DNA of 64,000 nucleotides from a virus. Positions 10,073-45,964 of this stretch are shown one piece after another; positions within the stretch are counted from its first letter, which is position 1, and every line of letters starts with the position of its first letter. The notes under the pieces are model-generated. The model did not search any database and was not told the origin of the DNA. It was given only the letters and a program-made list of their open reading frames with translations. The position numbers and the translations under genes were made by a program. Where the stretch lies: IMG/VR virus record IMGVR_UViG_3300045250_000071. One strand, given 5' to 3'.

Positions 10073-10900
10073 CTAGATGTAGGCGTCGCGGGCGATGAGC
10101 GTCGCGAAGGTCTGTCCGACCGGGGTGTCGGTGCGGGGGTGCAGCGACACGGTGAGGCTGCCGCCGGCGGGGATGTCGAACCACGCTCGGCGCGTGGCGA
10201 GCTCGGTTCGGGGCACGCCGCCGACCATGATCGTGCGGTGCCGGCAATCGACGGTGACGGGTGCGCCGGGCCACACGTCGCCGGTGTAGTCGATGACGCG
10301 GCCGGCGCCGTCCTCGAGCATGAACCCGCCGGGGAGGGTGCCCTGTACCTCGATGACGGGCCACGAGGTGGTTGTGCCGCGGTTGGTCGCGATCGCGATT
10401 GCGCCGTCGTCGCTGCCGTAGTCGATCGGGTAGTCGATCGGGTAGTCGATGCCGCCACGGCGGGCTCCGGCGAGGACGGTGACGTTCTGCGCTTCGGTCG
10501 AGTAGCGGGTCGGGTCGGGCGCGGTCACCGTGACGGTGAACAGGCCCGTGCTCTCCCAGCGTGAGCCGAAGCTGGTTTCGATCCAGCCCTCGACGGAGGT
10601 GTCGTCGACGTCGTCGACGCGCACCTCCACGAGGCTGTGTCCGAGCGTGTTGAACCGGTTGTACACCTCGATGGCGCTCTCACGAGTGTCGCCGAGGTGC
10701 GCGAGGTTGAACGTTGCTGTGCGGGGCGAGTAGACGACCGAGCGGGGACGGAACGAGCCGTCCGCCCCCGCTCGGTCGTCGAGGCTGGTCTTCACTCCGG
10801 GGAGGTCGTACCAGCCGCTGATACCGCCGTCGGTGACGATGACGTCATCATTGGGGTCGGCGCCGCCGCCGATCTCGATGCCACCAATCCACACTCGCAT
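10073..10900 (-). CDS. Distal tail protein (Dit-like)
   Basis: First gene after tape measure; GW...R...DG, APDPTRYS, YPIDYP, NRG...WP motifs. Confidence 0.8.
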   Translation of the reverse strand: MRVWIGGIEIGGGADPNDDVIVTDGGISGWYDLPGVKTSLDDRAGADGSFRPRSVVYSPRTATFNLAHLGDTRESAIEVYNRFNTLGHSLVEVRVDDVDDTSVEGWIETSFGSRWESTGLFTVTVTAPDPTRYSTEAQNVTVLAGARRGGIDYPIDYPIDYGSDDGAIAIATNRGTTTSWPVIEVQGTLPGGFMLEDGAGRVIDYTGDVWPGAPVTVDCRHRTIMVGGVPRTELATRRAWFDIPAGGSLTVSLHPRTDTPVGQTFATLIARDAYI

Positions 10901-10913
10901 GCAGCTTCTCCGA

Positions 10914-13900
10914 TCACATCTCGCGGACGACAGCCGCTGCGAGCCGGTCGCCGATCACGTTCGGATCAGACGTCGGCATGTAGTTCTTCTGGTAGATGTT
11001 CACGTCGCCTCGGCGCATGTCATCCCACTGGTCAGACGTGAGCACCGGCTCGGGCTTGCCCGTCGCGTTGTACGCGAGCGTGAGCCCGGGTTGTAGCCAG
11101 CCACCCTCGTCGTACAGGTTCGGGATGACGCCACCGAATGCCGCGCGCCAGTCGAAGTGCGGCGGCAGCTTCTCCTCGTCGAGGTCACCGAACACGCCAC
11201 CGTCGCGAGCGACGTGGATGTGGTCGTAGTGGCCCGCGACTTGCCAGAGAATCTGACGCCAGCCGCCCATCGCGCGGATGGTGCTCGCAGCTGCGAACAT
11301 CGCCGACTGTGTACCTGCCATGTCGACGGCTGGGTTCATCCAGTCCGCGTGGTAGGTGTTTTTGCGTCGGCCAAGCGCGGCGTTGCGTGCAGGGGTATCC
11401 CACGTCGACGTGACGTAGAGGCCGTGCTTCTGGATCACCGGGATGAGGCGAGCGAGCGCGCGGCCACCGTGGAAGCCCTGGTAGGAGATTCCACCGCCGA
11501 CCCCAGGCACGAGGTCGTAGCCGCCGTCCTCGCCGCCGGGCGCGAACATCTCGTCGATCTTCTTCTTGAACCACTCGCCGATGCCCTTGACTGCGGCGAT
11601 GGGCCAGCCGACGATTGCCTCGCCGAGCATGCCACCACCGATGTTGTTGAGCATGTCCTTGACGGGCTCGAGCACGATGCGTTCGATCGCGCCGAGCGGG
11701 TCAGCGATGACGGCGCCGATGTTGTTGGCGACGTCGGACACGAACCCGGTGATGTTGTTCACCGCGTCCGCTGCCCAGTCCCAGATACCGCCATCGGCGA
11801 AGTGGGTCTGGCCGGCGTTCGAGCGTGCCGCGTTCACCCGGTCGAGCCAGGGCTTACCGCCGAGCGCGCGGAGCGCGTCCGGGCGGATGATGCCCTCACC
11901 GCCGGAGAGGTGGAGCATGCCGCCGGTTGGCGAGTAGAACTTGTGCACGTCACGGCCCGGTGTGTAGCCGGGCAGGACACCACCGGAGGCCAGCGCGATC
12001 GGTTCGATCGTGGGCATGCGCAGATCGAGCCCGACGCCCTTCGCGATGCCGTCGATCAGCGCCTTGATGCCGTCGTTGTATACGGTGTTGATCACGAAGT
12101 TGATCGGCGCGACCGCAGCTTTCTTGATCGCATCCCAAACGTCCTTGATGACGTCTCGCATCCCCTCGAACGCCGTACCGATGCCATCGGTAACGGTCGT
12201 GAAAATGGGGCTGAGCGTGTCGCGGAACCACGCGCCGACGACGTCGATCGCTCCCTTAATGCTCTCCCAGACCGGCGAGATGATGTTCTCGTAGAGCCAG
12301 GTGAAAATCGGGGCGAGGGTGTCTCGCACGACGGTGACGATCGCGGTGAAAATGATCTGCACCGCGGCCCAGTAGACGCCGATCACGGTCGAGATCGCGT
12401 TCCAAATCGGCTTGATGATGTTCTCGTACAGCCACGTGAAAATCGGCCCCAGAACGTCCGAGATGAACGCGACGATTCCTGAGAAGATGGCGCCGACGAC
12501 GGTGATCGCGCCCTGAATGACGGGTACGAGCGCCGCGAACACGGTGCTCACGACCTCGAGCAGCCACTGAATCACGGGGACGAGGGCCTCGAGGATGAGC
12601 GTCACGATCGGCATCAGCGCGTTGATGATCTGCGTCGCGATCGGTAGCACGACCGCGACGATCTGCGTGAACACGGGCAGGAACGTCGCCAGGAGTTGGA
12701 CGACGACCTGCGCGATCTGCTGTATCACCGGCACGAGCGCCGCCGCGAGCATCGTGATCAGCGGGGTTACGGCAGCGATCAGCTGCTGAAACACCGGCAT
12801 GAGCTGCGCGACGAACGTTTGGATCAGTGGTGCGACCGCGGCTGCGACCTCGCCGATCACCGTCGCGATCTCGCCGAACGCCGCGCCGAGCGAGCTTTGC
12901 AGCTCGGGCGACGACGCGATGAGCGCGCCGATGAGGCCGACGATGATGCCGACCGGCCCGAACGCTACCTTCATGATCGGGCCGAGCTTCGTGAACAGGC
13001 CGGTCAGCTTGCCGCCGGCGCCGAGGAGACCACCGAAGCCCGAGGCGAGCGCGCCGATACCGCCGACGGCGCCACCGACAATGCTCGTGATCTTGCCGAA
13101 CACGAGCAGCGCGGGCCCGATCGCTGCCGCGATGCCGGCGACCTTGAGGATGACGCCCTGCATCTCGGGGTTGAGGTTCTGCCACCACGTGACAGCGGTG
13201 CGAATCTTCTCGATCATCGTCGCGAATGCCGCGCCGACCTTCTCGCCGAGCTCGGCAGCCTTCGGGGTGATGTTGTCGAGCGCGCCCGTGAAATCGGCCA
13301 TGAGCGGCTTGAGCTGCGAGAAGAAGCCGCCGCCCTCGCCGCCGGCGTCGAGGAACGCGGCACCGACACGGCTGATGGCCGCTTTGACGTTGTCCCATGC
13401 GCCGACGAACGACGTTTGGCCCATGATCTGGGCGGCGCCGCCGAGGCCCGTCTCGAGGGCGTTCTGGAAGTCCGCGAAGCCGATCTCACCGGCCGAGGCA
13501 AGCTTGTAGACCTCTTCGGCGGTGACGCCGAGCTCCTGCGCGAGGAATTGCACGATCGGCACGCCGGCATCGCCGAGCTGCGCGAGCACGTCGCCCTGTG
13601 CCTTGCCGGAGGCCGCGACCTTGTTGAAGATCGAGCCCATCGATTGCATGTCGACGCCGGCGATGGCCGCAGCGTCACCGACGAGCGAGAGCGTGCGTTC
13701 GAGGTCGTTGCCGGGCTTCACGCCCGCGGCGACCGCCGCAGCGGCCACGTTCGCGGCGTCGCCGAGGCCGAACGCGGTGCCCTTCACCGCAGCAAGCGCC
13801 GAGTCCATGATCAGCTCGACCGACTCGGTCGAGTGGCCGAGCGCCTGCAGCTTGGACTGCGCGGTGTCGATGCCGACGAGGCGCTTGAAGCCGAGCGTCG

Positions 13901-36928: not shown

Positions 36929-37360
36929 ATGAATACCGCATCCCCAACCACGACCGAGGCCGTCGACGTCAACATGGTCGTCGCATCCAACGTTCGTGCC
37001 GAATTCTCGCGAACGCGCTGGTCGGGCCGGAAAGCTGCGGCGGCGCTCGGCCTGTCTCCCATGTACGTCAATCGTCGCCTCGCCGGCGAGACCCCGCTCG
37101 ATCCGTCGGACCTCGTGATGTTCGCAGAGCTTATCGGCGTGCCCGTCGCGAAGTTCTTCGCAGACACAACAAAGCCCCTCACCGAAACCGATGAGGGGCG
37201 TGCTGCGCGCCTGGAGGGACTCGAACCCCCAACCTTCTGTACGGGGGTCTACGACCAGCACGCCGACGTCGTTAGCATCGATGACTTCCGCGCGAGAATG
37301 CGGAACTCCGCAGAATTCGCGCCGGAATTCGATACGCCGAGTGCATGCGTGGTCATTTAA
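36929..37360 (+). CDS. Immunity repressor (Xre HTH) containing attP
   Basis: NVRAE...WSGRKAAAALGLS..YVNRRLAGETP; divergent from Cro; upstream of integrase. Confidence 0.85.
   Translation: MNTASPTTTEAVDVNMVVASNVRAEFSRTRWSGRKAAAALGLSPMYVNRRLAGETPLDPSDLVMFAELIGVPVAKFFADTTKPLTETDEGRAARLEGLEPPTFCTGVYDQHADVVSIDDFRARMRNSAEFAPEFDTPSACVVI
37174..37199 (-). terminator. Terminator for the tRNA gene rebuilt on integration
   Basis: GCCCCTCATCG-GTTT-CGGTGAGGGGC then TTTGTTGT, immediately 3' of the tRNA fragment. Confidence 0.65.
37204..37239 (-). other. attP: attP common core = 3' half of a tRNA (Arg-like)
   Basis: Minus strand CAGAAGGTTGGGGGTTCGAGTCCCTCCAGGCGCGCA: T-arm GGTTCGAGTCC plus acceptor stem 3' strand; 5' half of tRNA absent. 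Confidence 0.85.
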
Positions 37361-37382
37361 ACACGATCTAAATATATTGGTT

Positions 37383-38216
37383 ATGGCCCTGAAACCGACA
37401 CCTGTACCGGACGAGTGGGAGACTCCCCTCGCCGACTACTTCATCGAGCAGACTGCTGCCGGCACGCCAGCGACCACACAGTACACGCGGCGTCAGCATC
37501 TCTCGAATCTGGCGCGCGGGCTCGGCGGCAGCCCGTGGACGGTGACGCCCGAGCAGCTGCTCGGGTGGTTCGCCGAGCGCGATTGGCTGCAGGAGACTCG
37601 CCGGAGCCGGCGCACGACTTTCCGGCATTTCTGGGCGTGGGGCGTTGCGACCGGCCGCACCGAGCAGAACACCGCCGCGATCCTGCCGGTCGTGAAGGCG
37701 AGCGCGCCGAAGCCGCGCCCCATCCCCGCGCCGTACCTGCACGAGGGCATGGAAGCCGCCGACCAGCGAACCGAACTCATTCTGCGCCTCGCGGCCGAAG
37801 CCGGCATGCGCCGCGGCGAGATCGCGCAAGCCCACTCACGTGACCTGCTGCCCGACCTCGACGGCTACTCGATCATCGCGCACGGCAAAGGCGGCAAAGA
37901 CCGCGTCATCCCGCTGAACACCGACCTCGCGGCCGCGCTGCTCAAACTCGGAAGCGGCTACTTCTTCCCCGGCCGAGTGAGTGGCCACCTGTCGGCCAAG
38001 TACGTCGGGAAACTCGCGACCCGCGTGCTGCCCGGTGAATGGACTCTGCACACTGGCCGGCACCGATTCGCCGTGCTCTCACACCGCGAATCGAAGGACC
38101 TCCTCATCGTGCAAGACCTGCTCGGCCACGCCTCCCCCGCCACCACGCGCGCGTACGTCGGCCCCGACCCGCAGCGAGCAAGACTCGTCGTCCAAGCGCT
38201 TCCCCGCGCCGCATAG
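37383..38216 (+). CDS. int: Tyrosine integrase (short, 277 aa, no arm-binding domain)
   Basis: GMRRGE, GKGGK, HTGRH, LLGH, TRAY catalytic motifs; ends ...PRAA. Confidence 0.92.
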   Translation: MALKPTPVPDEWETPLADYFIEQTAAGTPATTQYTRRQHLSNLARGLGGSPWTVTPEQLLGWFAERDWLQETRRSRRTTFRHFWAWGVATGRTEQNTAAILPVVKASAPKPRPIPAPYLHEGMEAADQRTELILRLAAEAGMRRGEIAQAHSRDLLPDLDGYSIIAHGKGGKDRVIPLNTDLAAALLKLGSGYFFPGRVSGHLSAKYVGKLATRVLPGEWTLHTGRHRFAVLSHRESKDLLIVQDLLGHASPATTRAYVGPDPQRARLVVQALPRAA

Positions 38217-39179: not shown

Positions 39180-39425
39180 TCAGACGACGCGAGAAGCTCG
39201 CGCGGCGTCGCGTCGCTCGAGCGCACGCTTCACCGTCATCGGCGCGTACTGCCAGGCAGCCGGCAGCTCGATGAGCGCGCCGAGCACGGCGTAGTAGCGG
39301 GTCGCTGTCCAGCCGAACGCGCGCCGGATTGCGTCGACCTTGCGGCCACCGTGCAGCGGCCACTCGGCCTCGAAATCGAGGAGCTGCCGGTCAACGTCAT
39401 CGAGCTCGATCGCCATGACGCTCAC
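39180..39425 (-). CDS. DUF3263-family protein
   Basis: LLDFE..W...G.K..AIR..FG..ATRYY.VL..LI..P.A....P..V.R. Confidence 0.8.
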   Translation of the reverse strand: MSVMAIELDDVDRQLLDFEAEWPLHGGRKVDAIRRAFGWTATRYYAVLGALIELPAAWQYAPMTVKRALERRDAARASRVV

Positions 39426-39862
39426 TCAGCCTCGACGAGTTCCCAGCCGCCCGGGTACTCGCTCGGGCGGGAGCCGTGGACGTCGGCGAGGGCACGCCAG
39501 ACTCGGCCGGCGTCGCGGGCGAGGTCGCCGGCCTGGAACGGGCCCGGCTGCCAGAACGGCACAAGCGGGCCGGTGGCGGGCTCCCAGCCGTCGCCCGGGG
39601 GCTCGGTCGTGACACCGAGCTGAGTGGCGTCGTAGTGGGCGCCAGCGTGCTCGACGCGCCACCCGCGGGGGTACGCGCCGATGATGCCGACCGGTGCCTG
39701 CCAGGCGGCGCCGTTCTCGCGCCCTTCGGCGACGAGGTAGTCGAGCAGCATCGCGTCGGTTCGGCGCGCCGCGTCCGCGAGTTTCTGTCGGCGCTCGAGT
39801 TCGGCCTGCGCGGATGCGGCCGCGTCGGCGAGCTCGCTGTCGCTCATCGTGTCGATGTCCAA
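39422..39862 (-). CDS. Coiled-coil plus tandem CBM5/12-like carbohydrate-binding domains
   Basis: TTG start after GGAGG; AWQAP.G...AYP.G..V.H.G..Y...EP...GW and WQPG..Q.GD.....GRVW....PS..PGGW. Confidence 0.65.
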   Translation of the reverse strand: MDIDTMSDSELADAAASAQAELERRQKLADAARRTDAMLLDYLVAEGRENGAAWQAPVGIIGAYPRGWRVEHAGAHYDATQLGVTTEPPGDGWEPATGPLVPFWQPGPFQAGDLARDAGRVWRALADVHGSRPSEYPGGWELVEAE

Positions 39863-39864
39863 TG

Positions 39865-40263
39865 TCAGACCTCCAGGTGCTTCGGGAACGACGCAAGGGT
39901 GGTGAATTCGAAGCCGCCGCGTAGCGTCTCCGGTCGGGTGATCGCCAGCAATCCTTTGACGACCTGCTGGTTCCAGTAGATGGTTTTGCCGTAGTAGAGC
40001 GAGCACAGCGAAGGGTGGAGCGATGTCGCGGAGTCGTTCACCCAGTGGTATTGGTGCGGCAGCGGCGCCCCGCACGCCCAATCTGGGAGGTGACCGAGGT
40101 TGGCGAGCCCTGGCTTCGTCGTGTCGAGCCGCAGCCCCGACAGGTCGACAATCACGGTGTGGTCAACCCGCAGCACGCGGAAAAACTGGATCGGGTCGTT
40201 CGGGCCCTGCGGTGCGAGGCCGGCAGCGGACGTATGGACGACTTGCCAATCGGTACGCGTCAC
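39865..40263 (-). CDS. RBP-head-like cassette C9 (lacks N-terminal hook)
   Basis: TDWQ...RVDHTVIV.LSGL...LPDWA...FPKHL; GTGA-coupled. Confidence 0.65.
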   Translation of the reverse strand: MTRTDWQVVHTSAAGLAPQGPNDPIQFFRVLRVDHTVIVDLSGLRLDTTKPGLANLGHLPDWACGAPLPHQYHWVNDSATSLHPSLCSLYYGKTIYWNQQVVKGLLAITRPETLRGGFEFTTLASFPKHLEV

Positions 40264-40328
40264 AGCTTCACCCCCGCGATCGGCCCGGTTTCGTATGTGC
40301 CGGGCGTGATTCTGCGTTGCCAGACCAT
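40260..40328 (-). CDS. 22-aa mini-ORF (hook peptide plus cassette C-terminus only)
   Basis: MVWQRRITPGTYETGPIAGVKL; TAATG start, GTGA stop overlap, GGGGGTG SD upstream. Confidence 0.5.
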   Translation of the reverse strand: MVWQRRITPGTYETGPIAGVKL

Positions 40329-40612
40329 TAAATCGTCACCCCCATTAGGTCGCGCCAAGGACGCCAAACGCCTGACAGGCAGCTCCGCTTCACGACCGCG
40401 TATCCGCCGTCCCAGGGAATGAATACCTGCAACGGCTGGCCATCACGCCACTGCAACACCTCGAGGAACCCCGGCACCTCGTCATACGGGTAGCCGTTCG
40501 CTGCGGTCGCGTACGCACCAAACTGCACCACGTACCGGTTGGGCGACGTGATGGTGTCGAGGTGCTCGTTCGTGAGTACTACCGCCGCTCGTGGACGTTT
40601 TGCCCAGACCAT
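40328..40612 (-). CDS. Cassette C8, pyocin-knob-like tail-fibre domain
   Basis: MVWAKR start at TGATG; LDTITSP..Y.......ANGYP....GFLEV.......LQ.F........KR....VWRPW. Confidence 0.7.
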   Translation of the reverse strand: MVWAKRPRAAVVLTNEHLDTITSPNRYVVQFGAYATAANGYPYDEVPGFLEVLQWRDGQPLQVFIPWDGGYAVVKRSCLSGVWRPWRDLMGVTI

Positions 40613-40950
40613 CAGTTCCCTGCTCTCCATGTGACGGTGCCGGCGTAGGTTGCGCCGGCGGTGGCTCCGAGGATGCGGAGGTTGCCAGCGAACACCGACA
40701 CGAGGCGGACCTCACCGGATGCGGTGACGAGAACTCCCTGGCGACCGTTCATGCCGACGGGGTCGGGCACGGGCAGGTAGTTCGATGTGAGGCTTGCGAT
40801 GTTGACGTTGCCCGCGTTCCCAACCGTGAGCCCGCTCGTGAGGAACGTGACGGTGTCGTCGTCGCGGCGAATCGCTGCTGATCCAGTCACTCCCGCGAGG
40901 AGGGTGAGGTTCTCCCACGTACCGCGGCCGCGGCGCTTTACCCAGCTCAT
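40612..40950 (-). CDS. Small receptor-binding-head-like protein, cassette C7
   Basis: MSWVKRR start at ATGA; GTWENLT...RRDDDTVT...L.SNYLP. Confidence 0.75.
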   Translation of the reverse strand: MSWVKRRGRGTWENLTLLAGVTGSAAIRRDDDTVTFLTSGLTVGNAGNVNIASLTSNYLPVPDPVGMNGRQGVLVTASGEVRLVSVFAGNLRILGATAGATYAGTVTWRAGN

Positions 40951-41315
40951 GATGCTCCCTTCGGGAATGGCACCCCGGGCACCGGGAACTGGCTCAGCCC
41001 GGCGGCGTAGCCGTTCGTGACGGCCATCGTGCGTGGCAGCGCGAGGACTCCGGCGTTGTTGGTAAATCCGTTTTGCACGGGCGCCGCTGCAAGACCCGTC
41101 GAGAACACGAACGACCGGCGTGCGATGAAGAAGCCGATGGGAAGCTGCACGACGTTGTCACTCGTCGCGGCAGACCCGTCGAGAGATTGCGACTCGACGA
41201 GGACGATGTCGCCGTCGCGCTTCACGCGCAGACTCGCTGCCACCCACCCGTTCAGGAGCTGTGTCGTGAGATCGATCCACACGGTGGCGCGCTGGCGCCG
41301 TAGCGACCAAGGCAT
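40947..41315 (-). CDS. Small receptor-binding-head-like protein, cassette C6
   Basis: MPWSLRR; WIDLTTQLLNGW...KRDGDIV...LPIGF. Confidence 0.75.
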   Translation of the reverse strand: MPWSLRRQRATVWIDLTTQLLNGWVAASLRVKRDGDIVLVESQSLDGSAATSDNVVQLPIGFFIARRSFVFSTGLAAAPVQNGFTNNAGVLALPRTMAVTNGYAAGLSQFPVPGVPFPKGAS

Positions 41316-41701
41316 CAGACCTTCACCCCCGGGTAGCTCGTCGGAAAATCACCCGAGACCGGTACCGACACCGTGAAATGCAGCACGTCGTTTGGCGCAG
41401 CGAAATAGAGCGGCACCCAGCCGGCCGGCGAGACCGCGAGCCGGCGTAACTGGCCGGCGCTGTTGAACAGGTTTGTCCAGCAGCTGCGCCCGCTCGGGCG
41501 GAGCCCACTCGGGAGCGTGCCAGACGGCAGCAGGTCAAACGTTCCCGAAACCTCGCCGAGGCGCAGCGCGTCGGCGAGCAGCCACAGTGTTTCGCCGGTG
41601 CGTTGCACGTAGAGGTTGCCGGAGGTGACGGGTGCGCCGATGAGCGACGTGACGTTCCACAGCCCGGAGTCGCGCACGGAACGGGTTTTCAGAGCCCACA
41701 T
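41315..41701 (-). CDS. Cassette C5 (copy 2)
   Basis: Identical to 353..739. Confidence 0.75.
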   Translation of the reverse strand: MWALKTRSVRDSGLWNVTSLIGAPVTSGNLYVQRTGETLWLLADALRLGEVSGTFDLLPSGTLPSGLRPSGRSCWTNLFNSAGQLRRLAVSPAGWVPLYFAAPNDVLHFTVSVPVSGDFPTSYPGVKV

Positions 41702-41703
41702 AG

Positions 41704-42072
41704 CTATGCCTCCGGGATCGGGTTGTCGCAGCGGTATGTTCCGGTGCCGCGGATCGCGAGGCCTGCCTTCACCTGGTAGAGGTAGACAGCGCCAGTGCGG
41801 TCGATGCGGATCGACCCGCCAGGGTCGGCCGCGAGCCGTCGGCCGAGACCGATGTCGGTGTTCGAGTAATGCGGCCGGAATTGTTCGTCGAGGATGACGC
41901 CGAGGTTGAGGAACGGCGCATCATCGGCGAAGACGAGCCCGTCAGCCATGAGCGTGACGGTGCGCCCCTCGCGCGCGACGCGCATCACCCCGCTCTCGGG
42001 GAGGACTGCGAATCGGCTGGTGATGTCGATCCAGTCGGTCAGCTGCCGGTGTCGGCGTTGCCAAAGCGCCAT
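41704..42072 (-). CDS. Cassette C4 (copy 2)
   Basis: Identical to 742..1110. Confidence 0.75.
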   Translation of the reverse strand: MALWQRRHRQLTDWIDITSRFAVLPESGVMRVAREGRTVTLMADGLVFADDAPFLNLGVILDEQFRPHYSNTDIGLGRRLAADPGGSIRIDRTGAVYLYQVKAGLAIRGTGTYRCDNPIPEA

Positions 42073-42464
42073 CAGATCCCAACCCCCGGGTATGCCGTCG
42101 GGAACGCGTCGCGCGCCCGAATCTGGTGGTTGATGTTGATGAGCGTCGGCGCCCCGTTCGCGGCGACGAGCTGCAGGCGGTTGTTGTAGTGGTTGATGCG
42201 GTACATCGAGATGGGTCCACCACCCGCGCTGGACGCGAGCCCCGACCCGTACTCGTAGCGGCCACCGGAGGTGATGATTCCGGGCCGGAACCCCGAGGGC
42301 AGGAGCCACGGGATATCGCTGGTTGCGGCGGCGCCGTCGAGCTGGCCGCGGAACCAGACGACGTCACCGACGCGTTCGACGGTGAGCACACCGGCCCAGC
42401 CGTCGCGGAGCTCGGCAGAGATGTCGCGCAGGCCGGTTCGGCGTGGTTTCAGGCTCCAGGCCAT
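42072..42464 (-). CDS. Cassette C3 (copy 2)
   Basis: Identical to 1110..1502. Confidence 0.75.
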   Translation of the reverse strand: MAWSLKPRRTGLRDISAELRDGWAGVLTVERVGDVVWFRGQLDGAAATSDIPWLLPSGFRPGIITSGGRYEYGSGLASSAGGGPISMYRINHYNNRLQLVAANGAPTLININHQIRARDAFPTAYPGVGI

Positions 42465-42796
42465 TACGCGACCGCCTTTGTGCTGTAGGTGAGGCGTCCG
42501 AAAATCGGGCCGATGGTTAGCCCGTAGGCCTGGAGGTTGCCGGTGTTGGTGATCTGGACGCGGTTCGTGACGCCCGGCAGGTACTCGGCCTCGGTGAACG
42601 CTGGGCGGCCGAGTTCTGACGGGATGACGGCGATATTGCCGCCGGTTGTGTCGCCGAGCACGAGCACGTCGAACGCGATCACACGATCGCCGTCAGCCTT
42701 CTGCTGAAACAGAAGCCGCCCCGAGGTAACGGGGCGGCTGATGAGGTGCGTGATGTCGGTCCAGTCCGACGTCGCGGAGCGCTTGAGCCAGGGCAT
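42464..42796 (-). CDS. Cassette C2 (copy 2)
   Basis: Identical to 1502..1834. Confidence 0.75.
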   Translation of the reverse strand: MPWLKRSATSDWTDITHLISRPVTSGRLLFQQKADGDRVIAFDVLVLGDTTGGNIAVIPSELGRPAFTEAEYLPGVTNRVQITNTGNLQAYGLTIGPIFGRLTYSTKAVA

Positions 42797-43170
42797 CAGC
42801 CGCTCACCCCCATGAGGTTCGATGGGAACGCGCCGGCAGCCTCGACCTCGGCGTAGAACGAGATCGGCTGGCCAGCGACGACCGAGTAGATGTTCGAGTA
42901 GCCGGCCGGTGTGACCGAGAACGTGCCGCCGGCGGTGTAGCCGGTGGAGGGGTACCAGGTCTCGCGCAGTCGCCAGCGTGGCCGGTAGCCGTCGGCGAGG
43001 CGCGGGAGCGGCACGTTGGTGCCGGCCTCAGCGAAGACGAGGTCGTCACCAACGACGATGAGCCGCGAGCGTTTCCGCTGCACGAGGAGCCGGCCCGACG
43101 TGACCGCTGCGGTGATGAGGCCGGTGATGTCGCGGACACCTGTGTCTGGATCACGTCGCATCCATGCCAT
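42796..43170 (-). CDS. Cassette C1 (copy 2)
   Basis: Identical to 1834..2208. Confidence 0.75.
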   Translation of the reverse strand: MAWMRRDPDTGVRDITGLITAAVTSGRLLVQRKRSRLIVVGDDLVFAEAGTNVPLPRLADGYRPRWRLRETWYPSTGYTAGGTFSVTPAGYSNIYSVVAGQPISFYAEVEAAGAFPSNLMGVSG

Positions 43171-43172
43171 GG

Positions 43173-43556
43173 TTAGGCCTCCATTCGGTAGATGTCGCCG
43201 GTGAGCACGTCGTAGTGCCAGAACCCGACCGGTGCGCCGCCGACTGGTGCGCCCTCGCCGAATTTCGCGTTGGCGAGCGATGTGCCGCCCTGCGACGCCT
43301 CGACGCTGGTGAGCCGCGTCTCTGCCGACGACATACGTCCCTCGAGCGGGGCCAGGTCGTCGGCGTCGAGCGTGGCGTCGAGTCGGCCCTCAGCTGCGGT
43401 GAGTCGGCCCTCGGCAGCGGTGACTCGCCCCTCGAGCGGGGCGAGGTCTTCCGCAACAAGCGCGGTGTCCAGTCGGCCCTCGGCGGCGGTCAGCCGGTAT
43501 TCGACTGCGTTGATGTCCTCGGCGACGAGTACTGCGAAGGTTTGCAGGTCACCCAT
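43173..43556 (-). CDS. Coiled-coil fibre stem / adaptor (copy 2)
   Basis: Identical to 2211..2594. Confidence 0.7.
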   Translation of the reverse strand: MGDLQTFAVLVAEDINAVEYRLTAAEGRLDTALVAEDLAPLEGRVTAAEGRLTAAEGRLDATLDADDLAPLEGRMSSAETRLTSVEASQGGTSLANAKFGEGAPVGGAPVGFWHYDVLTGDIYRMEA

Positions 43557-44106
43557 TTCGCGCTCCTGTGTAGGCGTTGAGGATGGCGGTCTCGTCGAGT
43601 GCGCTCTCGGGCTGGACCCACGCGATGCCGCCGTTTTCGTAGCCGAGCACGGCGCCGGCCCAGCCGCCCGCCGGCACGTTGACGGTGACGATCGTGACGC
43701 CCTCCCCCGGCGTCGGTGGTGCGGCGTGAACGAGGTCGAGCGGCGCCTCCGAGGTGTGCGCCGCGGTGACCTCGAACCGGAACTCGGGGATCGCGGCGGC
43801 GACGAGGTTGAACCGCGCACGCCAAACGCCGGTGGTGAGCCACACACCCGGGGGCCGGGGAGTGTCGTCCACGTTGAGGAGGCATATGTTCCCGTTCGAG
43901 TCGAAACCGAACGGGATCTCTTCCTTCACGACGAGCGCGGAGTATTGCTCTGTGCGGTCGAGCGTGGCGACCGGCGTGAACACTCCAGTGCCGCGCGGCG
44001 CGAGCGTGTCGGGGTAGTCGTCCTCGTCATCGCCGTCGGCGACGGAACGGATGACGCGTCCGACGACGAGGCCGTACGCGAGGTCAGTAGGGGCAGGAAT
44101 CGACAC
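43549..44106 (-). CDS. Minor tail / fibre anchor (copy 2)
   Basis: Identical to 2587..3144. Confidence 0.6.
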   Translation of the reverse strand: MSIPAPTDLAYGLVVGRVIRSVADGDDEDDYPDTLAPRGTGVFTPVATLDRTEQYSALVVKEEIPFGFDSNGNICLLNVDDTPRPPGVWLTTGVWRARFNLVAAAIPEFRFEVTAAHTSEAPLDLVHAAPPTPGEGVTIVTVNVPAGGWAGAVLGYENGGIAWVQPESALDETAILNAYTGARNG

Positions 44107-44121: not shown

Positions 44122-44436
44122 CTATTTGTCGTTGCCGATGCGCTGCAGCTGCTCGCTCGCGCCGGTGGGCTTCCACATCGAGGCGTAGCTGCCTTGCGCG
44201 ACGCCGAGCGCGAGAAGGGCGTTCAGGACGCCGACTCCGATGTCGTATGCCTCGCCCGTGGCGAGTGCCGCACCAAGCTCGGTGAGGACACCAGTCGCCA
44301 GCGAGAGCACAGCGAGCAGGATGCCCTTGAACGCGCCCGAGGTGACGCGAGTAGTGACGAGGCCAACGAGTGCCGGCAGGACGACGGCGACGACGAGCGA
44401 GATGACGAGCGACGGTGGCAGGGTGAATTCGATCAT
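44122..44436 (-). CDS. Holin-like protein (copy 2)
   Basis: Identical to 3160..3474. Confidence 0.7.
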   Translation of the reverse strand: MIEFTLPPSLVISLVVAVVLPALVGLVTTRVTSGAFKGILLAVLSLATGVLTELGAALATGEAYDIGVGVLNALLALGVAQGSYASMWKPTGASEQLQRIGNDK

Positions 44437-44723
44437 TTGGAATCTCCTTGAGTTTCGATTGCCCCGGTGCCGCCAATAACTGGGCGCCGCGGGAGTTCGT
44501 CGGTGTCAATGCACGGTGCATTGACGGCAATTCGCCGGAGTTCGTTGTATGCGTCTTCCATTGCGAATAGGTCATTTCGAATCTTTCGCACGAGCCGCCA
44601 CGCCTTCTGCTCGTCGGTATGCTTCTTGCCTCGCCGGTCGAGCAGCTTCTGCACGATGTAGAGGCCGACTCCGCCACTAGAGAAGAGCGCAATCCCAAGC
44701 CCGGTCAGCTGCTCCGGAGTCAT
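44433..44723 (-). CDS. Single-TM protein (copy 2)
   Basis: Identical to 3471..3761. Confidence 0.6.
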   Translation of the reverse strand: MTPEQLTGLGIALFSSGGVGLYIVQKLLDRRGKKHTDEQKAWRLVRKIRNDLFAMEDAYNELRRIAVNAPCIDTDELPRRPVIGGTGAIETQGDSK

Positions 44724-44728
44724 CGGCG

Positions 44729-45151
44729 CTACCCCCGGTCATCGAGAATTGGCGGGCGATAATCCCACCCTCGGATATTGAGGATGCGAGAGAGGAAGAA
44801 CAGCTCGGCAAAAATGAGACTGCACAGCTGCGGAACGCGATTGCCTTCGGCGGTGATGATGAGCCAGACGACTTGCGTGAGATAGATCATCAGGCCGGTC
44901 ATGAGCAGGAGGATCGACGCTCGTTCGGCCCACCACCACCGCGAGTAGACGGTGAGGCAGCCGCCGAGCCCGCCGATGAGCATGATGAGGCCCCACACGA
45001 ACGTCAGCGCGGTGCCGAGTTCGTTCTCGATCGTGCGCGGTGGCACGGTGAGACAAGCGATGCCCATGATGACGGCGACGATGTAGCCGACGAGGCCGAC
45101 GGGTCGGTGCCGGGGCGGGTCGAGGAACACACGGACGAGAAATTGCCGCAT
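44729..45151 (-). CDS. 4-TM membrane protein (copy 2)
   Basis: Identical to 3767..4189. Confidence 0.65.
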   Translation of the reverse strand: MRQFLVRVFLDPPRHRPVGLVGYIVAVIMGIACLTVPPRTIENELGTALTFVWGLIMLIGGLGGCLTVYSRWWWAERASILLLMTGLMIYLTQVVWLIITAEGNRVPQLCSLIFAELFFLSRILNIRGWDYRPPILDDRG

Positions 45152-45160
45152 GATCGGCCC

Positions 45161-45964
45161 CTAGTCGCTCGTGGTGAGTGTGATTTCGAGGCCGGCGAGC
45201 GCGTCCTTGAGCGCTCCGTCGATGCGTTTCAGGACGGCGTCCTGGTCGAGCCCGTTCGCTTTCGCGAGCGTCTCGACGGCGGCTCGCAGGGCCTTGATCT
45301 CGGCCTGGGTGTCGAGGGTGCGACCCATGAGCCCGTTCGTGGAGCGCCGGGCCTGGCGAAGTCGCTCACCTGCCGTCTCGGTGGGAATCTGCCCACCGGT
45401 CGGGAGTTTCTTCCCGCCCTCCATTTCGTAGCGCCAGACGGCCGCGGCCGCGGCCTCGGCGATGCTTGCGATCTCTGCCTTCGTGACCACGTCATCCTCC
45501 TTTGGAGTGGGTTTTGCGGGCGAGGTGCCCGAGGTTTTCGAGACGAGCGAGGGTCGCCCGCCGGCGGAGCGGGTCCAGCCGAGGTACTTGTGCCCCTTGC
45601 GGCGCTGGTAATCGTTGAAATCGACGGTGCCGTAGTTGATCGACCCGCCCCGGTCGAGACGGCGCGACACGGCCTTCGAGTCGCCGGTCATGAAAATGAG
45701 CCCGTTGCCGAGCGACCAGCCGACGTGCCCGTCGGGGTACCACTCCCAGAAGTGCACGGCGCCGCGCGGGGCGGCGTACGGGTCGGTGCCGTCGATGCGG
45801 GAGGCGCGGTAGTCGAGCGTCGCCGAGGAGTAGGAGCGATGTGCCTGGCTGCCGGTGTGCGCCCAGATGCCATACCAAATTAGGCGTTCACATTCCTGAT
45901 TCCAATTGAAATACGGTCGGCCTCGGTTCATTTGATCGATGACTTTATCGACGCTGAAACTCAT
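45161..45964 (-). CDS. Endolysin (copy 2)
   Basis: Identical to 4199..5002. Confidence 0.7.
   Translation of the reverse strand: MSFSVDKVIDQMNRGRPYFNWNQECERLIWYGIWAHTGSQAHRSYSSATLDYRASRIDGTDPYAAPRGAVHFWEWYPDGHVGWSLGNGLIFMTGDSKAVSRRLDRGGSINYGTVDFNDYQRRKGHKYLGWTRSAGGRPSLVSKTSGTSPAKPTPKEDDVVTKAEIASIAEAAAAAVWRYEMEGGKKLPTGGQIPTETAGERLRQARRSTNGLMGRTLDTQAEIKALRAAVETLAKANGLDQDAVLKRIDGALKDALAGLEITLTTSD

Follow-up and report, generated by a model that had tools for sequence, protein, structure and literature searches.

In the 64,000-nucleotide stretch of virus DNA analysed here (IMG/VR record IMGVR_UViG_3300045250_000071; hereafter, the window), a 127-aa stem gene on the minus strand is followed by nine translationally coupled ORFs, all nine of which open with a short peptide, the hook, made of a Trp at residue 2–4 and basic residues. 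We consider it probable that the stem and the small genes behind it, as separate coupled cistrons, encode a receptor-binding fibre in split form, with the hook docking the heads in trans on the C-terminal end of the stem. The phage carrying the stem and the head array is temperate and has an actinobacterial host. The features are as follows.

43549..44106, minus strand: 185-aa gene preceding the stem gene, with whose start its own stop overlaps (ATGGGTGA)
43173..43556, minus strand: stem, 127 aa; coiled-coil repeats (AEGRL...) followed by a C-terminal half-neck rich in Gly and Pro
43173..43265, minus strand: C-terminal module of the stem, KFGEGAPVGGAPVGFWHYDVLTGDIYRMEA plus stop; likely docking site, putatively the first two strands of a split neck
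42796..43170, minus strand: C1, 124 aa; hook MAWMRR; RBP-head domain; phrog_3971, 1.3e-5
42464..42796, minus strand: C2, 110 aa; hook MPWLKR; RBP-head domain; database relative P0010
42072..42464, minus strand: C3, 130 aa; hook MAWSLK; RBP-head domain; phrog_3971, 9.5e-9
41704..42072, minus strand: C4, 122 aa; hook MALWQRR (Trp at residue 4); RBP-head domain
41315..41701, minus strand: C5, 128 aa; hook MWALK (Trp at residue 2); RBP-head domain; phrog_3971, 1.6e-7
40947..41315, minus strand: C6, 122 aa; hook MPWSLRR; RBP-head domain; phrog_3971, 2e-7
40612..40950, minus strand: C7, 112 aa; hook MSWVKRR; RBP-head domain; phrog_3971, 0.017
40328..40612, minus strand: C8, 94 aa; hook MVWAKR; a different (first-knob type) domain; phrog_6614 positions 307–390, 2.5e-5
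40260..40328, minus strand: C9, 22-aa mini-ORF; hook MVWQRR and a tail ...PIAGVKL resembling a cassette C-terminus
39865..40263, minus strand: C9b, 132 aa; begins with a GTG that overlaps the stop of C9; hookless
39422..39823, minus strand: 133-aa gene (...SRPSEYPGGW...) after the array; phrog_18593, 4e-7

The stem, the hooked cassettes and their recurrence

The stem ends in ...APVGFWHYDVLTGDIYRMEA before its stop. Its profile matches are to coiled coils only (Sugarporin_N, 5.5e-6; DUF7310; both Pfam), and comparison with tail needles gave 0.017 for the PHROG family and E 0.075 for P22 gp26. Among 383,562 six-frame residues from the window and related loci, the strict regular expression G.P.G.{0,5}[AL][PS][VI]G.{4}D had 10 matches, all in stem ORFs, and within this genome the stem module is the sole match to the looser G.W..D..TG..Y. 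The 185-aa gene upstream has no Pfam or PHROG match; its C-terminus (...AYTGARNG) resembles that (...AYVETRNG) of a 113-aa gene which stands before the stem of another array, L003, with the same overlap.

All nine hooked starts listed by the first-pass annotation are present, from C1 at 43170 to C9 at 40328, and so is the junction it had described between stem and C1, TAA-CC-ATG with a GGAGG Shine–Dalgarno sequence, located 7 nt before the ATG. Stop and start overlap (TGATG, TAATG or ATGA) at seven of the eight junctions after C1, and a 2-nt spacer separates C4 from C5 (TAG-CT-ATG). Every cassette has its own start codon, and all are co-oriented. phrog_3971 did not match C2 or C4; the L003 homologue of C7 is 71% identical. 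C9, which had been counted among the nine cassettes, has the hooked start but only 22 codons, and the hookless C9b behind it had gone unlisted. C9 is probably the remnant of a deleted cassette; its 3' end repeats the C5/C6 junction at 85% (repeat family D17). C9b represents the cassette type best conserved between arrays, with 71–76% DNA identity to hookless homologues that terminate the arrays of L004, L005, L008, L010, and G481, and in L003 the hook is fused in frame to a C9b-type body. Since a hookless cassette is kept at the array end in four of five array types, a head can evidently persist without the hook.

Four other arrays have a stem ending at the same motif and then 6–7 hooked heads: six in L003, six in L004 (identical to L011), seven in the L005 type, and six in G481. 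Stem homologues occur in L003, L004–L010/L011, and G481, and in all five array types the array stands directly behind a stem ending in APVG[FW][WY]..D..TGD.Y.M.. plus stop. The distance from stem stop to first start is −1, 2, 3, or 4 nt and differs in all four types; hence no reading-frame link is conserved. The G481 array is likewise trailed by a 153-aa homologue of the post-array 133-aa gene. A search of 1.84 billion proteins returned 1977 representatives at E ≤ 1e-3; among the best 150 of these, 57 proteins are no longer than 145 aa, and 43 of the 57 start with M(M)[AGPSTVD]?W. At least three of the 12 "other" short relatives (P0005, P0017, P0129) are hooked proteins whose start had been called internally.

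When 23 cassettes from three genomes and four database proteins (18–55% identity to C1) are aligned, only two columns are invariant, Met1 and the hook Trp; this conservation is not due to chance. The hook is retained on three domain types (C8 and LC4; LC6; the remainder), and about 5 to 13 residues link its Trp to the head. By hand count, the residue after this Trp is Leu or Ile in 1 of 15 hooks behind stems ending in ...D[IV]YRMEA and in 12 of 14 behind stems ending in ...DYY[EQ]M.; as the stems form two related groups and the cassettes include paralogues, this covariation is not independent evidence.

Head fold and single-chain relatives

The seven full-size cassettes have the RBP head fold of lactococcal phages. 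The model used for comparison (AF2; cassette 1 of L004 in a stem-linked read-through form) has head blocks at pLDDT 73–90, and its nine Foldseek matches at E ≤ 1e-3 comprise eight p2/TP901-1 RBP chains and the Pa223 tail needle. By their titles, PDB entries 3d8m and 3da0 are chimeric TP901-1/p2 RBPs. E-values for lactococcal/PSA-type RBP heads range from 4e-4 to 2e-3 at 8–14% sequence identity. Alignment by VIA to the heads of Listeria phage PSA gp15, TP901-1, and p2 gave Z 9.3–10.0 and rmsd 2.2–3.2 Å over 90–96 residues. The weaker model of C3 recovered the same families (E 0.03–0.1). As the VIA-aligned range starts at about cassette residue 7, the hook lies outside the head; the cassettes (94–130 aa) begin 6–8 residues before the head, the stem being a separate ORF. 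On sequence, family profile A6 aligns to residues 459–574 of Laroye gp28 (hhalign probability 98.3%). That one hooked head has a different fold, as proposed earlier, is borne out by C8, which matches gp28 at about residues 340–428 (39% identity to this internal domain), in contrast to 459–574 for the other cassettes.

Five of the 159 other proteins (P0038, P0090, P0098, P0112, and P0116; "class B") carry a stem-like module, a Gly-rich loop, a G-W-x-V strand, and the head in one chain, with the consensus G.P.G..APVG..Y.D.....GA..W.K..G.G..GW.V..GDTGWRDI before the head. The strict stem expression matches all five, each at a fixed distance before the head; looser single-chain forms are P0095, P0051, and P0134. 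HMMER places the hook Trp on the in-cis Trp (verified by counting: W50 of P0038 and W54 of P0090), and MAFFT aligns the stem end ...GEGAPVGGAPVGFWHYD with GSPEGKVAAPVGSVYTD and the hook M-A-W with S-G-W; the spacing from Trp to DTG in C1 equals that in the cis forms. With the hook Trp on the in-cis Trp, stem and heads look like one neck split in its loop, and if the hook is the neck strand that the single-chain relatives have in cis, then stem and heads must rejoin in trans.

The first-pass annotation had taken the hook for the missing W-x-K strand of the stem module. The single-chain relatives with their in-cis Trp strand and the HMMER alignment favour the idea of a missing strand but not the register: in the cis relatives, W-x-K belongs to the second strand, kept in the stem as Y-R-M-E, and the hook corresponds instead to the third strand, after the Gly-rich loop. 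Natural fusions of a stem-like module with a head, for which a search had been suggested, do exist (the five class B proteins), with the Gly loop and the G-W-x-V strand in between. The stretch quoted from the 976-aa fibre of this genome as an in-cis comparator is present, but it is only loosely comparable, and the class B proteins serve better.

The similarity between stem and cis neck is at the level of a motif: hhalign aligned the stem to the P0090 neck over 18 columns (50% identity, E 0.33) and did not find the similarity with P0098. In the read-through model, the hook strand (57–61) comes right after the second strand of the stem (49–54), in a neck of pLDDT 62–66 where the covalent link itself forces proximity. 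In the commoner fused relatives of the Laroye/Argan type, profile homology begins at cassette residue 9, and the profile alignment contains no equivalent of the hook.

A docking model and its alternatives

Under the preferred reading, the stem would be a trimeric coiled coil whose last ~30 residues form two neck strands. Each head would trimerise as well, and its hook strand would pair with the last strand of the stem by donor-strand complementation, the basic residues of the hook lying near the acidic C-terminus of the stem. All heads would then compete for one stem end, giving virions with mixed heads and several binding specificities, and recombination within the conserved coding ends, for the hook and for the C-terminus, might add, remove, and exchange heads. 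A more far-reaching version, which we offer tentatively, is a plug-and-play fibre: a trimeric stem on which each of up to nine separately made heads, from at least three domain types, may be mounted by trans strand complementation through a six-residue Trp-basic tag derived from a neck split in its Gly loop, with mosaic virions and with tag codons acting as recombination joints for head swaps between phages.

It seems unlikely that the hook docks on some other virion component (Dit, Tal, the 185-aa protein, or the 976-aa fibre) and that the stem is an independent fibre. The N-terminus of TP901-1-type RBPs docks on the baseplate protein BppU, and the ESM-Atlas structural neighbours include a BppU_N-containing cluster; the weak significance of the stem-to-cis-neck similarity points the same way. 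On the other hand, heads stand directly behind a stem with the same motif in all five array types, the motif is absent elsewhere in this genome, and the cis relatives set it immediately before the Trp strand and head.

Somewhat less credible again is a role of the hook within its own cassette, for instance as a clamp for the trimer, as a tag for folding or for a chaperone, or as the initiation context of coupled translation. Such a role would fit the constant position of the hook at a coupled start, and monomer models, which leave it unstructured (residues 1–4 of C3 at pLDDT <50), make a role within the trimer possible. However, homologous heads fold in cis without a hook, the hookless C9b type is conserved, and in the cis relatives the equivalent Trp strand is internal and non-initiating.

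Covalent or genetic joining of the heads to the stem, whether the ribosome reads through or shifts frame at the stem stop, or DNA rearrangement brings silent cassettes up to the stem as in shufflons and the Mu G segment, we regard as improbable. L004 and the L005 type do have the stop in frame with cassette 1 (TAA CCA ATG), but the varying stop–start spacing does not keep this relation. The cassettes have start codons of their own, with mostly overlapping junctions and GGAGG at C1. Although L004 and L005 differ by a cassette swap whose breakpoints fall within the hook codons and ~47 nt short of the cassette end, all cassettes point in the same direction, inter-cassette repeats are only 60–85% identical, and no invertase lies nearby. 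A search for features of invertible cassettes found all cassettes on one strand and a longest inverted repeat of 28 nt at 71%; the sole recombinase seen is the integrase (37191–38216). Four runs gave an identical arrangement with no inter-cassette joints, contigs being unable to reveal rare forms.

The position of the window array, behind the lysis genes and close to the integrase end of the genome, a common site of morons, would suit free lectins or superinfection-exclusion factors of the prophage acting outside the virion, but this is very improbable given that the cassettes are co-oriented and coupled with stem and tail genes, that fold and PHROG matches point to tail proteins, and that in L003, L004, and L005 the stem/head module directly follows Tal within the tail operon.

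Comparison with known systems

Systems in which several RBPs dock on one phage are already known, and the layout of one stem plus hooked heads is a new variation on them; the snap-on hook, if true, would give one phage several binding specificities. With TP901-1 BppL/ORF49, p2 ORF18, and Listeria phage PSA gp15, the present proteins share the head fold and a neck before what would be a trimeric head. In those RBPs, however, a single chain contains the shoulder or stem, the neck, and the head, and each phage has one RBP gene, whereas in the present arrays the chain appears to be interrupted within the neck, and 6–9 head genes follow one stem. The minor tail proteins Laroye gp28 and Argan gp19 of Arthrobacter phages (phrog_6614/phrog_3971) have a homologous head domain, and the class B proteins additionally have the stem-like G.P.G..APVG..Y.D module and the G-W-x-V strand in cis. 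Unlike the hooked cassettes, all of these are single polypeptides without an N-terminal hook or an array, and the hairpin of Laroye and Argan differs (AGRxIYxWDxxNxREQLIYGDTGWRDI).

Very short N-terminal peptides common to several RBPs of one phage are also found in phages of the K1-5/SP6/KP34 type, and the combination of divergent bodies with a common peptide is seen in all nine hooked ORFs of the window. We know of no description of those peptides as homologous to an in-cis neck strand. According to Latka et al. (2019; PMC6872550), RBPs of K1E/K1-5/SP6 and of Klebsiella KP34-type phages share a 7- or 11-residue peptide, e.g., MALxxLV, modelled as the attachment to an adaptor or anchor protein. 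These RBPs differ from ours in being beta-helical tailspikes, usually two, of podoviruses and myoviruses with Gram-negative hosts; the peptides are not positively charged, their docking partners are adaptor or T4gp10-like domains, and the motif MALxxLV is distinct from M-x-W-basic. For the hook, synteny (5/5 array types) and colinearity with the cis relatives make the stem a candidate adaptor.

The adhesin gp38 is a small protein with a gene of its own; held non-covalently at the distal fibre end, it sets the host range. In T2-type phages (Trojet et al., 2011; PMC3157838), it tips the long tail fibre gp37. The present heads are similarly encoded apart from their fibre; gp38, in contrast, is the product of one adhesin gene, with an unrelated fold, its own attachment domain, and no array. 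In chaperone-usher pili, the N-terminal extension of one subunit completes the beta-structure of its neighbour by donor-strand complementation. The hook would act in a comparable way, but pili are built from Ig-like pilins, with a periplasmic chaperone and polymerisation. Finally, the Mu G segment, the P1 C segment, and shufflons also encode alternative receptor-binding ends behind one constant part. There, the parts are joined at the DNA level by a recombinase acting with inverted repeats, whereas the cassettes described here, for which a search revealed no such repeats, share one orientation and are translated separately.

Layout of the array and its genomic setting

The stem, a 127-aa coiled-coil protein, is followed by nine small cassette genes (C1–C9), each opening with the N-terminal hook, i.e., a Trp and then basic residues. 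Translation of the ORFs confirmed all nine hooked starts listed in the first-pass annotation, as well as the stem terminus ...GAPVGGAPVGFWHYDVLTGDIYRMEA, followed by TAA-CC-ATG, and a Shine-Dalgarno sequence of C1's own, GGAGG, which is made by Met-Glu codons 7 nt ahead of the C1 start. Seven of the eight later junctions are stop/start overlaps, while C4 and C5 are separated by a 2-nt spacer. C9 is a mini-ORF of 22 aa, consisting of the hook and a tail that resembles the cassette C-terminus (repeat family D17); the first-pass annotation missed its short length and did not include the tenth, hookless cassette C9b.

Features of the array and of its surroundings
43173–43556, minus strand: stem, 127 aa, ends in ...GAPVGGAPVGFWHYDVLTGDIYRMEA
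39865–40263, minus strand: C9b, tenth cassette, hookless, GTG start, behind C9
51876–55718, minus strand: 1280-aa ORF, likely tape-measure gene, judged by size and position
Tail module, minus strand: minor tail protein (phrog_1885, 2e-44)
Tail module, minus strand: 976-aa fibre
37191–38216, plus strand: tyrosine integrase

The sequence of the window recurs exactly every 40,962 bp, with no mismatches across the 23,038 overlapping bases; hence the phage genome is circular or circularly permuted and was read 1.56 times. A second copy of the array accordingly falls at 1–2594 (offset 40,962). The GC content of the window is about 0.67. The 1280-aa ORF, the minor tail protein, and the 976-aa fibre constitute a siphovirus tail module on the minus strand. 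Behind the fibre gene come lysis-type genes, then a gene for a 185-aa protein and, after it, the stem with its cassettes. The lysis-type genes (44122–45964) encode a 267-aa protein matching phrog_19265 and three small membrane-like ORFs; the 185-aa protein had no match in genome contigs. In L003 and L004, two related loci, the stem/cassette module lies directly behind Tal and is followed by an ORF of 703–712 aa, a putative glycosidase as read off the sequence. Translations around the integrase start (37191–37360) read ...RAWRDSNPQPSV / ...LEGLEPPTF, which resembles a tRNA 3' half, typical of an attP core; no complete tRNA was found in the window by ARAGORN.

The closest sequenced phages, at protein identities of 24–35%, have Arthrobacter, Rothia, Glutamicibacter, and Microbacterium as hosts. 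Proteins of the window phage are present on about 231–238 contigs, the longest of 742,528 bp; thus, the phage exists as a prophage too. Of the runs labelled ant metagenome, all 4 compared contain the array without a single difference, in contigs only (Logan), which are possibly the window's own source; such assembled contigs are mute on expression and rare rearrangements. A second contig in all four runs matches C9b only at 40034–40059 and 40174–40194, with 111 other letters between, which points to another, diverged gene of the C9b type in these samples.

Searches with the stem yielded coiled-coil matches only (Sugarporin_N, DUF7310, a tail-needle PHROG, and P22 gp26 with E 0.075), as did a word-index protein search, whose sole match was of this kind. 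No homologues of the stem or of its last 48 aa were found by tblastn against phages, and the stem profile had no match in metagenome contigs. Among 301 genomes of one family, the C-terminal module of this profile was matched in a single genome, G001. Interpretation of the hook as a Tat signal was dropped, as no hydrophobic region lies behind the basic residues.

Recurrence of the arrays and exchange of cassettes

Related arrays were retrieved with the C7-family alignment and stem alignments, and one more, G481, via an order-level genome search. Each of them has a stem ending in APVG[FW][WY]..D..TGD.Y.M.. and a stop, directly followed by six or seven hooked cassettes.

Related arrays and their hooks
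L003, IMG/VR contig: MAWLRR, MSWLKRR, MAWLKK, MAWNLK, (TTG)AWLKK, MAWRKQ
L004, 100% identical to L011 of [Zimmermannella] faecalis ATCC 13722: MGWLRTRR, MAWLKK, MAWLRR, (GTG)AWLKR, MAWIRRR, MSWLRR
L005 type: L005, L006, L008, and L010, with L007 broken in its second cassette
G481 (locus L040): MVWNLK, MAWSKKK, MAWKKK, MVWSKKR, MGWMKKP, MPWNKKPR

Met1 and the Trp are the only invariant columns in the alignment of 23 cassettes, and the hook is retained both on the knob-type cassette LC4 of L003 and on LC6, a third, 91-aa domain. A hookless C9b-type cassette terminates four of the five array types (the window, L004 at 10692–11087, the L005 type, and G481 at 5821–6258 of L040). This type is conserved between arrays better than any other cassette, with 71–76% DNA identity, and could serve as a chaperone, a cap, or a constant binder. 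The C9b-type cassette of L003 does bear a hook (one copy is TTG-started), and in the window (39865–40328) the hookless C9b is preceded by the 22-aa hook-only C9.

Among reference genomes the arrays are rare, occurring in 1 of 301 genomes sampled from the family and 2 of 401 from the order; in metagenomes they are not rare. The head family is large: hmmsearch over 1.84 billion representatives retrieved 1977 at E ≤ 1e-3, of which 210 reach E ≤ 1e-10. Among the best 150 of the 1977, 57 proteins are no longer than 145 aa, comprising 43 hooked stand-alone clusters, two with Phe in place of the Trp, and 12 others. At least three of the latter (P0005, P0017, P0129) belong to the hooked proteins too, their gene calls beginning at an internal start. 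Thus, public gene calls begin C1 (42796–43170) at Met4 and C5 (41315–41701) at an internal Val (P0005, P0017), while P0129 is a G481 cassette (L040 5076–5447) begun at Met4. Gene callers that begin after the hook therefore cut it off from database entries. The family is unannotated, the database clusters examined bearing no names. A degenerate DNA pattern of the hook had 0 matches in metagenome contigs and recovered only the known ones in viral contigs. The database proteins P0025 and P0117 gave no locus in viral contigs, hence the genomic context comes from the five array types only.

The distance between the stem stop and the first start is 2 nt in the window, 4 nt in L003, and 3 nt in frame in L004 and L005, with a 1-nt overlap in G481, so that the arrays conserve neither a frameshift nor a read-through relation. 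This bears out the first-pass claim that the stem and C1 are separate polypeptides. Programmed -1 frameshifting was dropped on the same grounds, and no slippery heptamer was seen before the stem stop.

All cassettes have the same orientation, and the repeats between them are short and 60–85% identical; no long or near-identical inter-cassette repeats that could be recombination substrates were found, and no invertase is present near the array. A diversity-generating retroelement was dismissed, as reverse transcriptase is absent from the window's ORF list. Comparison of L004 (8762–9145) with L005 (2826–3592) revealed an exchange of a single cassette for two, identity being lost 11 nt into the cassette, past the hook codons, and regained 47 nt before the cassette end. 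The location of these breakpoints suggests that the conserved cassette ends serve as recombination joints, with cassette-level swapping over evolutionary time.

Predicted function of the cassettes

No Pfam family was found for any cassette. Using PHROG profiles, C1, C3, C5, C6, and C7 were mapped to the C-terminal ~120 positions of phrog_3971 and phrog_6614 (minor tail protein), and C8 to a domain that lies before these positions in both families, in agreement with the first-pass observation that one head of another domain type is nevertheless hooked. Both domains occur in series within gp28 of the Arthrobacter phage Laroye and gp19 of Argan (tblastn), and the profile of 23 cassettes matches residues 459–574 of Laroye gp28 with a probability of 98.3%. 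No matches were obtained for C3 among longer proteins, for C5 among phages, or for C3 and the alignment A4 among viral contigs. PDB sequence searches with Laroye gp28, the stem profile, and the database protein P0098 gave nothing relevant beyond a weak gp26 coiled coil.

The first structural model (C3, seven sequences) was weak, with pLDDT 61 and phage receptor-binding protein (RBP) heads as the nearest structures (E 0.03–0.1). The second model, built for an L004 cassette from an alignment of 23 rows, reaches pLDDT 73–90 in the head blocks. At E ≤ 1e-3, Foldseek produced nine matches, eight of them chains of p2/TP901-1 lactococcal RBPs and one the Pa223 tail needle. VIA aligned this model with Listeria PSA gp15, the Pa223 needle knob, TP901-1, and p2 (Z 9.3–10.0, rmsd 2.2–3.2 Å, 90–96 residues), the aligned part of the cassette beginning at residue ~7. 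Given these fold matches and the aligned range, the cassettes are predicted to be receptor-binding heads, with the hook outside the head domain. Structural neighbours in the ESM-Atlas, namely phage baseplate and RBP clusters, agree with this assignment. As to LC6 (L003 11435–11710), this hooked 91-aa cassette of another sequence type has a sub-threshold match to H_lectin (H-type lectin; E 0.2).

The hook as a candidate neck strand

Most fused relatives are matched by the profile from position 8–9 onward, so the hook has no counterpart in them, and the segment preceding the head is a hairpin, AGRxVxxWDxxNxREQLIYGDTGWRDI. Natural single-chain homologues joining a stem-like module to a head, whose search had been proposed in the first-pass annotation, were found in five proteins (class B: P0038, P0090, P0098, P0112, P0116; more loosely P0095, P0051, P0134). 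Their neck, located before the head, follows the pattern G-[SF]-P-x-G-x(3)-A-P-V-G-x-x-Y-x-D-x(5)-G-A-x-x-W-x-K-x-x-G-x-G-x-x-G-W-x-V-x-x-G-D-T-G-W-R-D-I. Across the window and related loci (383,562 residues in six frames), the regular expression G.P.G.{0,5}[AL][PS][VI]G.{4}D matches stems alone, and of 159 other proteins only these five, at a constant distance ahead of the head. L018 (G289:C3, 1–1426) contains another tandem head array, in which two of three successive head genes start with MSAPTL(Q/R)A, not the Trp hook, and the third has a class B neck in cis (GSPEG..APPG..Y.D...W.W.K..G.G..GW).

The HMMER match begins at profile position 2–3 in 12 longer proteins, and the hook Trp aligns to W50 of P0038 and W54 of P0090, i.e., to the G-W-x-V strand, as checked by counting. 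Independently, MAFFT placed GEGAPVGGAPVGFWHYD of the stem on GSPEGKVAAPVGSVYTD and M-A-W of the hook on S-G-W; the Trp-to-DTG spacing of C1 is that of the cis forms. Alignment of the stem with the cis neck by hhalign (18 columns, 50% identity, E 0.33) is not significant alone, and was missed against P0098. In the simplest reading, an ancestral neck would have been split in its Gly-rich loop, strands 1 and 2 staying with the stem and strand 3 opening each cassette. The first-pass annotation had proposed the hook as the missing strand of the truncated C-terminal module of the stem, supplied in trans by donor-strand complementation. The alignment of the Trp with the in-cis G-W-x-V strand lends this idea partial support. 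The suggested register, Y-x(4-6)-W-x-K, is slightly off: W-x-K of the cis forms belongs to strand 2, a place taken by Y-R-M-E in the stem.

The in-frame L004 read-through, folded with TAA as Gln, forms strands WAID (40–43), YYQMEQ (49–54), GWLRT (57–61, the hook), and GVRD (67–70). The neck has pLDDT 62–66 and the covalent link itself forces the hook close to the stem end; hence the model is compatible with the docking mechanism and is no evidence of binding. By hand count, L or I follows the Trp in 12 of 14 hooks that accompany ...DYY[EQ]M. stems, against 1 of 15 with ...D[IV]YRMEA stems; coming from two related groups with paralogues, this difference is only a hint of covariation. Taken together, we consider docking of the heads on the stem through the hook a somewhat favored possibility. 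If a six-residue tag suffices for this, it would offer a minimal and portable means of putting new heads on a fibre, useful in host-range studies with laboratory phage-host pairs, and the phage would have a library of specificities that takes up little coding sequence, about 350 bp per head.

Phages with multiple RBPs and docking by short N-terminal peptides are already known, mostly as paired large tailspikes in phages of Gram-negative bacteria. Unlike most of these cases, the host of the siphophage studied here is a Gram-positive actinobacterium. No description of such head arrays was found in full-text literature searches. The system appears to be a TP901-1/p2-type RBP cut in the neck, its head gene multiplied 6–9 times behind one stem. 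The cassettes have the head fold in common with the RBPs of p2, TP901-1, and PSA, but are not members of those single-chain families. The proposed docking follows the principle of RBPs of the K1-5/SP6/KP34 type, held on short N-terminal peptides (PMC6872550); another parallel is gp38, the adhesin at the tip of the gp37 fibre. From both, the array differs in host group, head fold, number of heads (6–9), and the apparent origin of the hook as a strand of a split neck.
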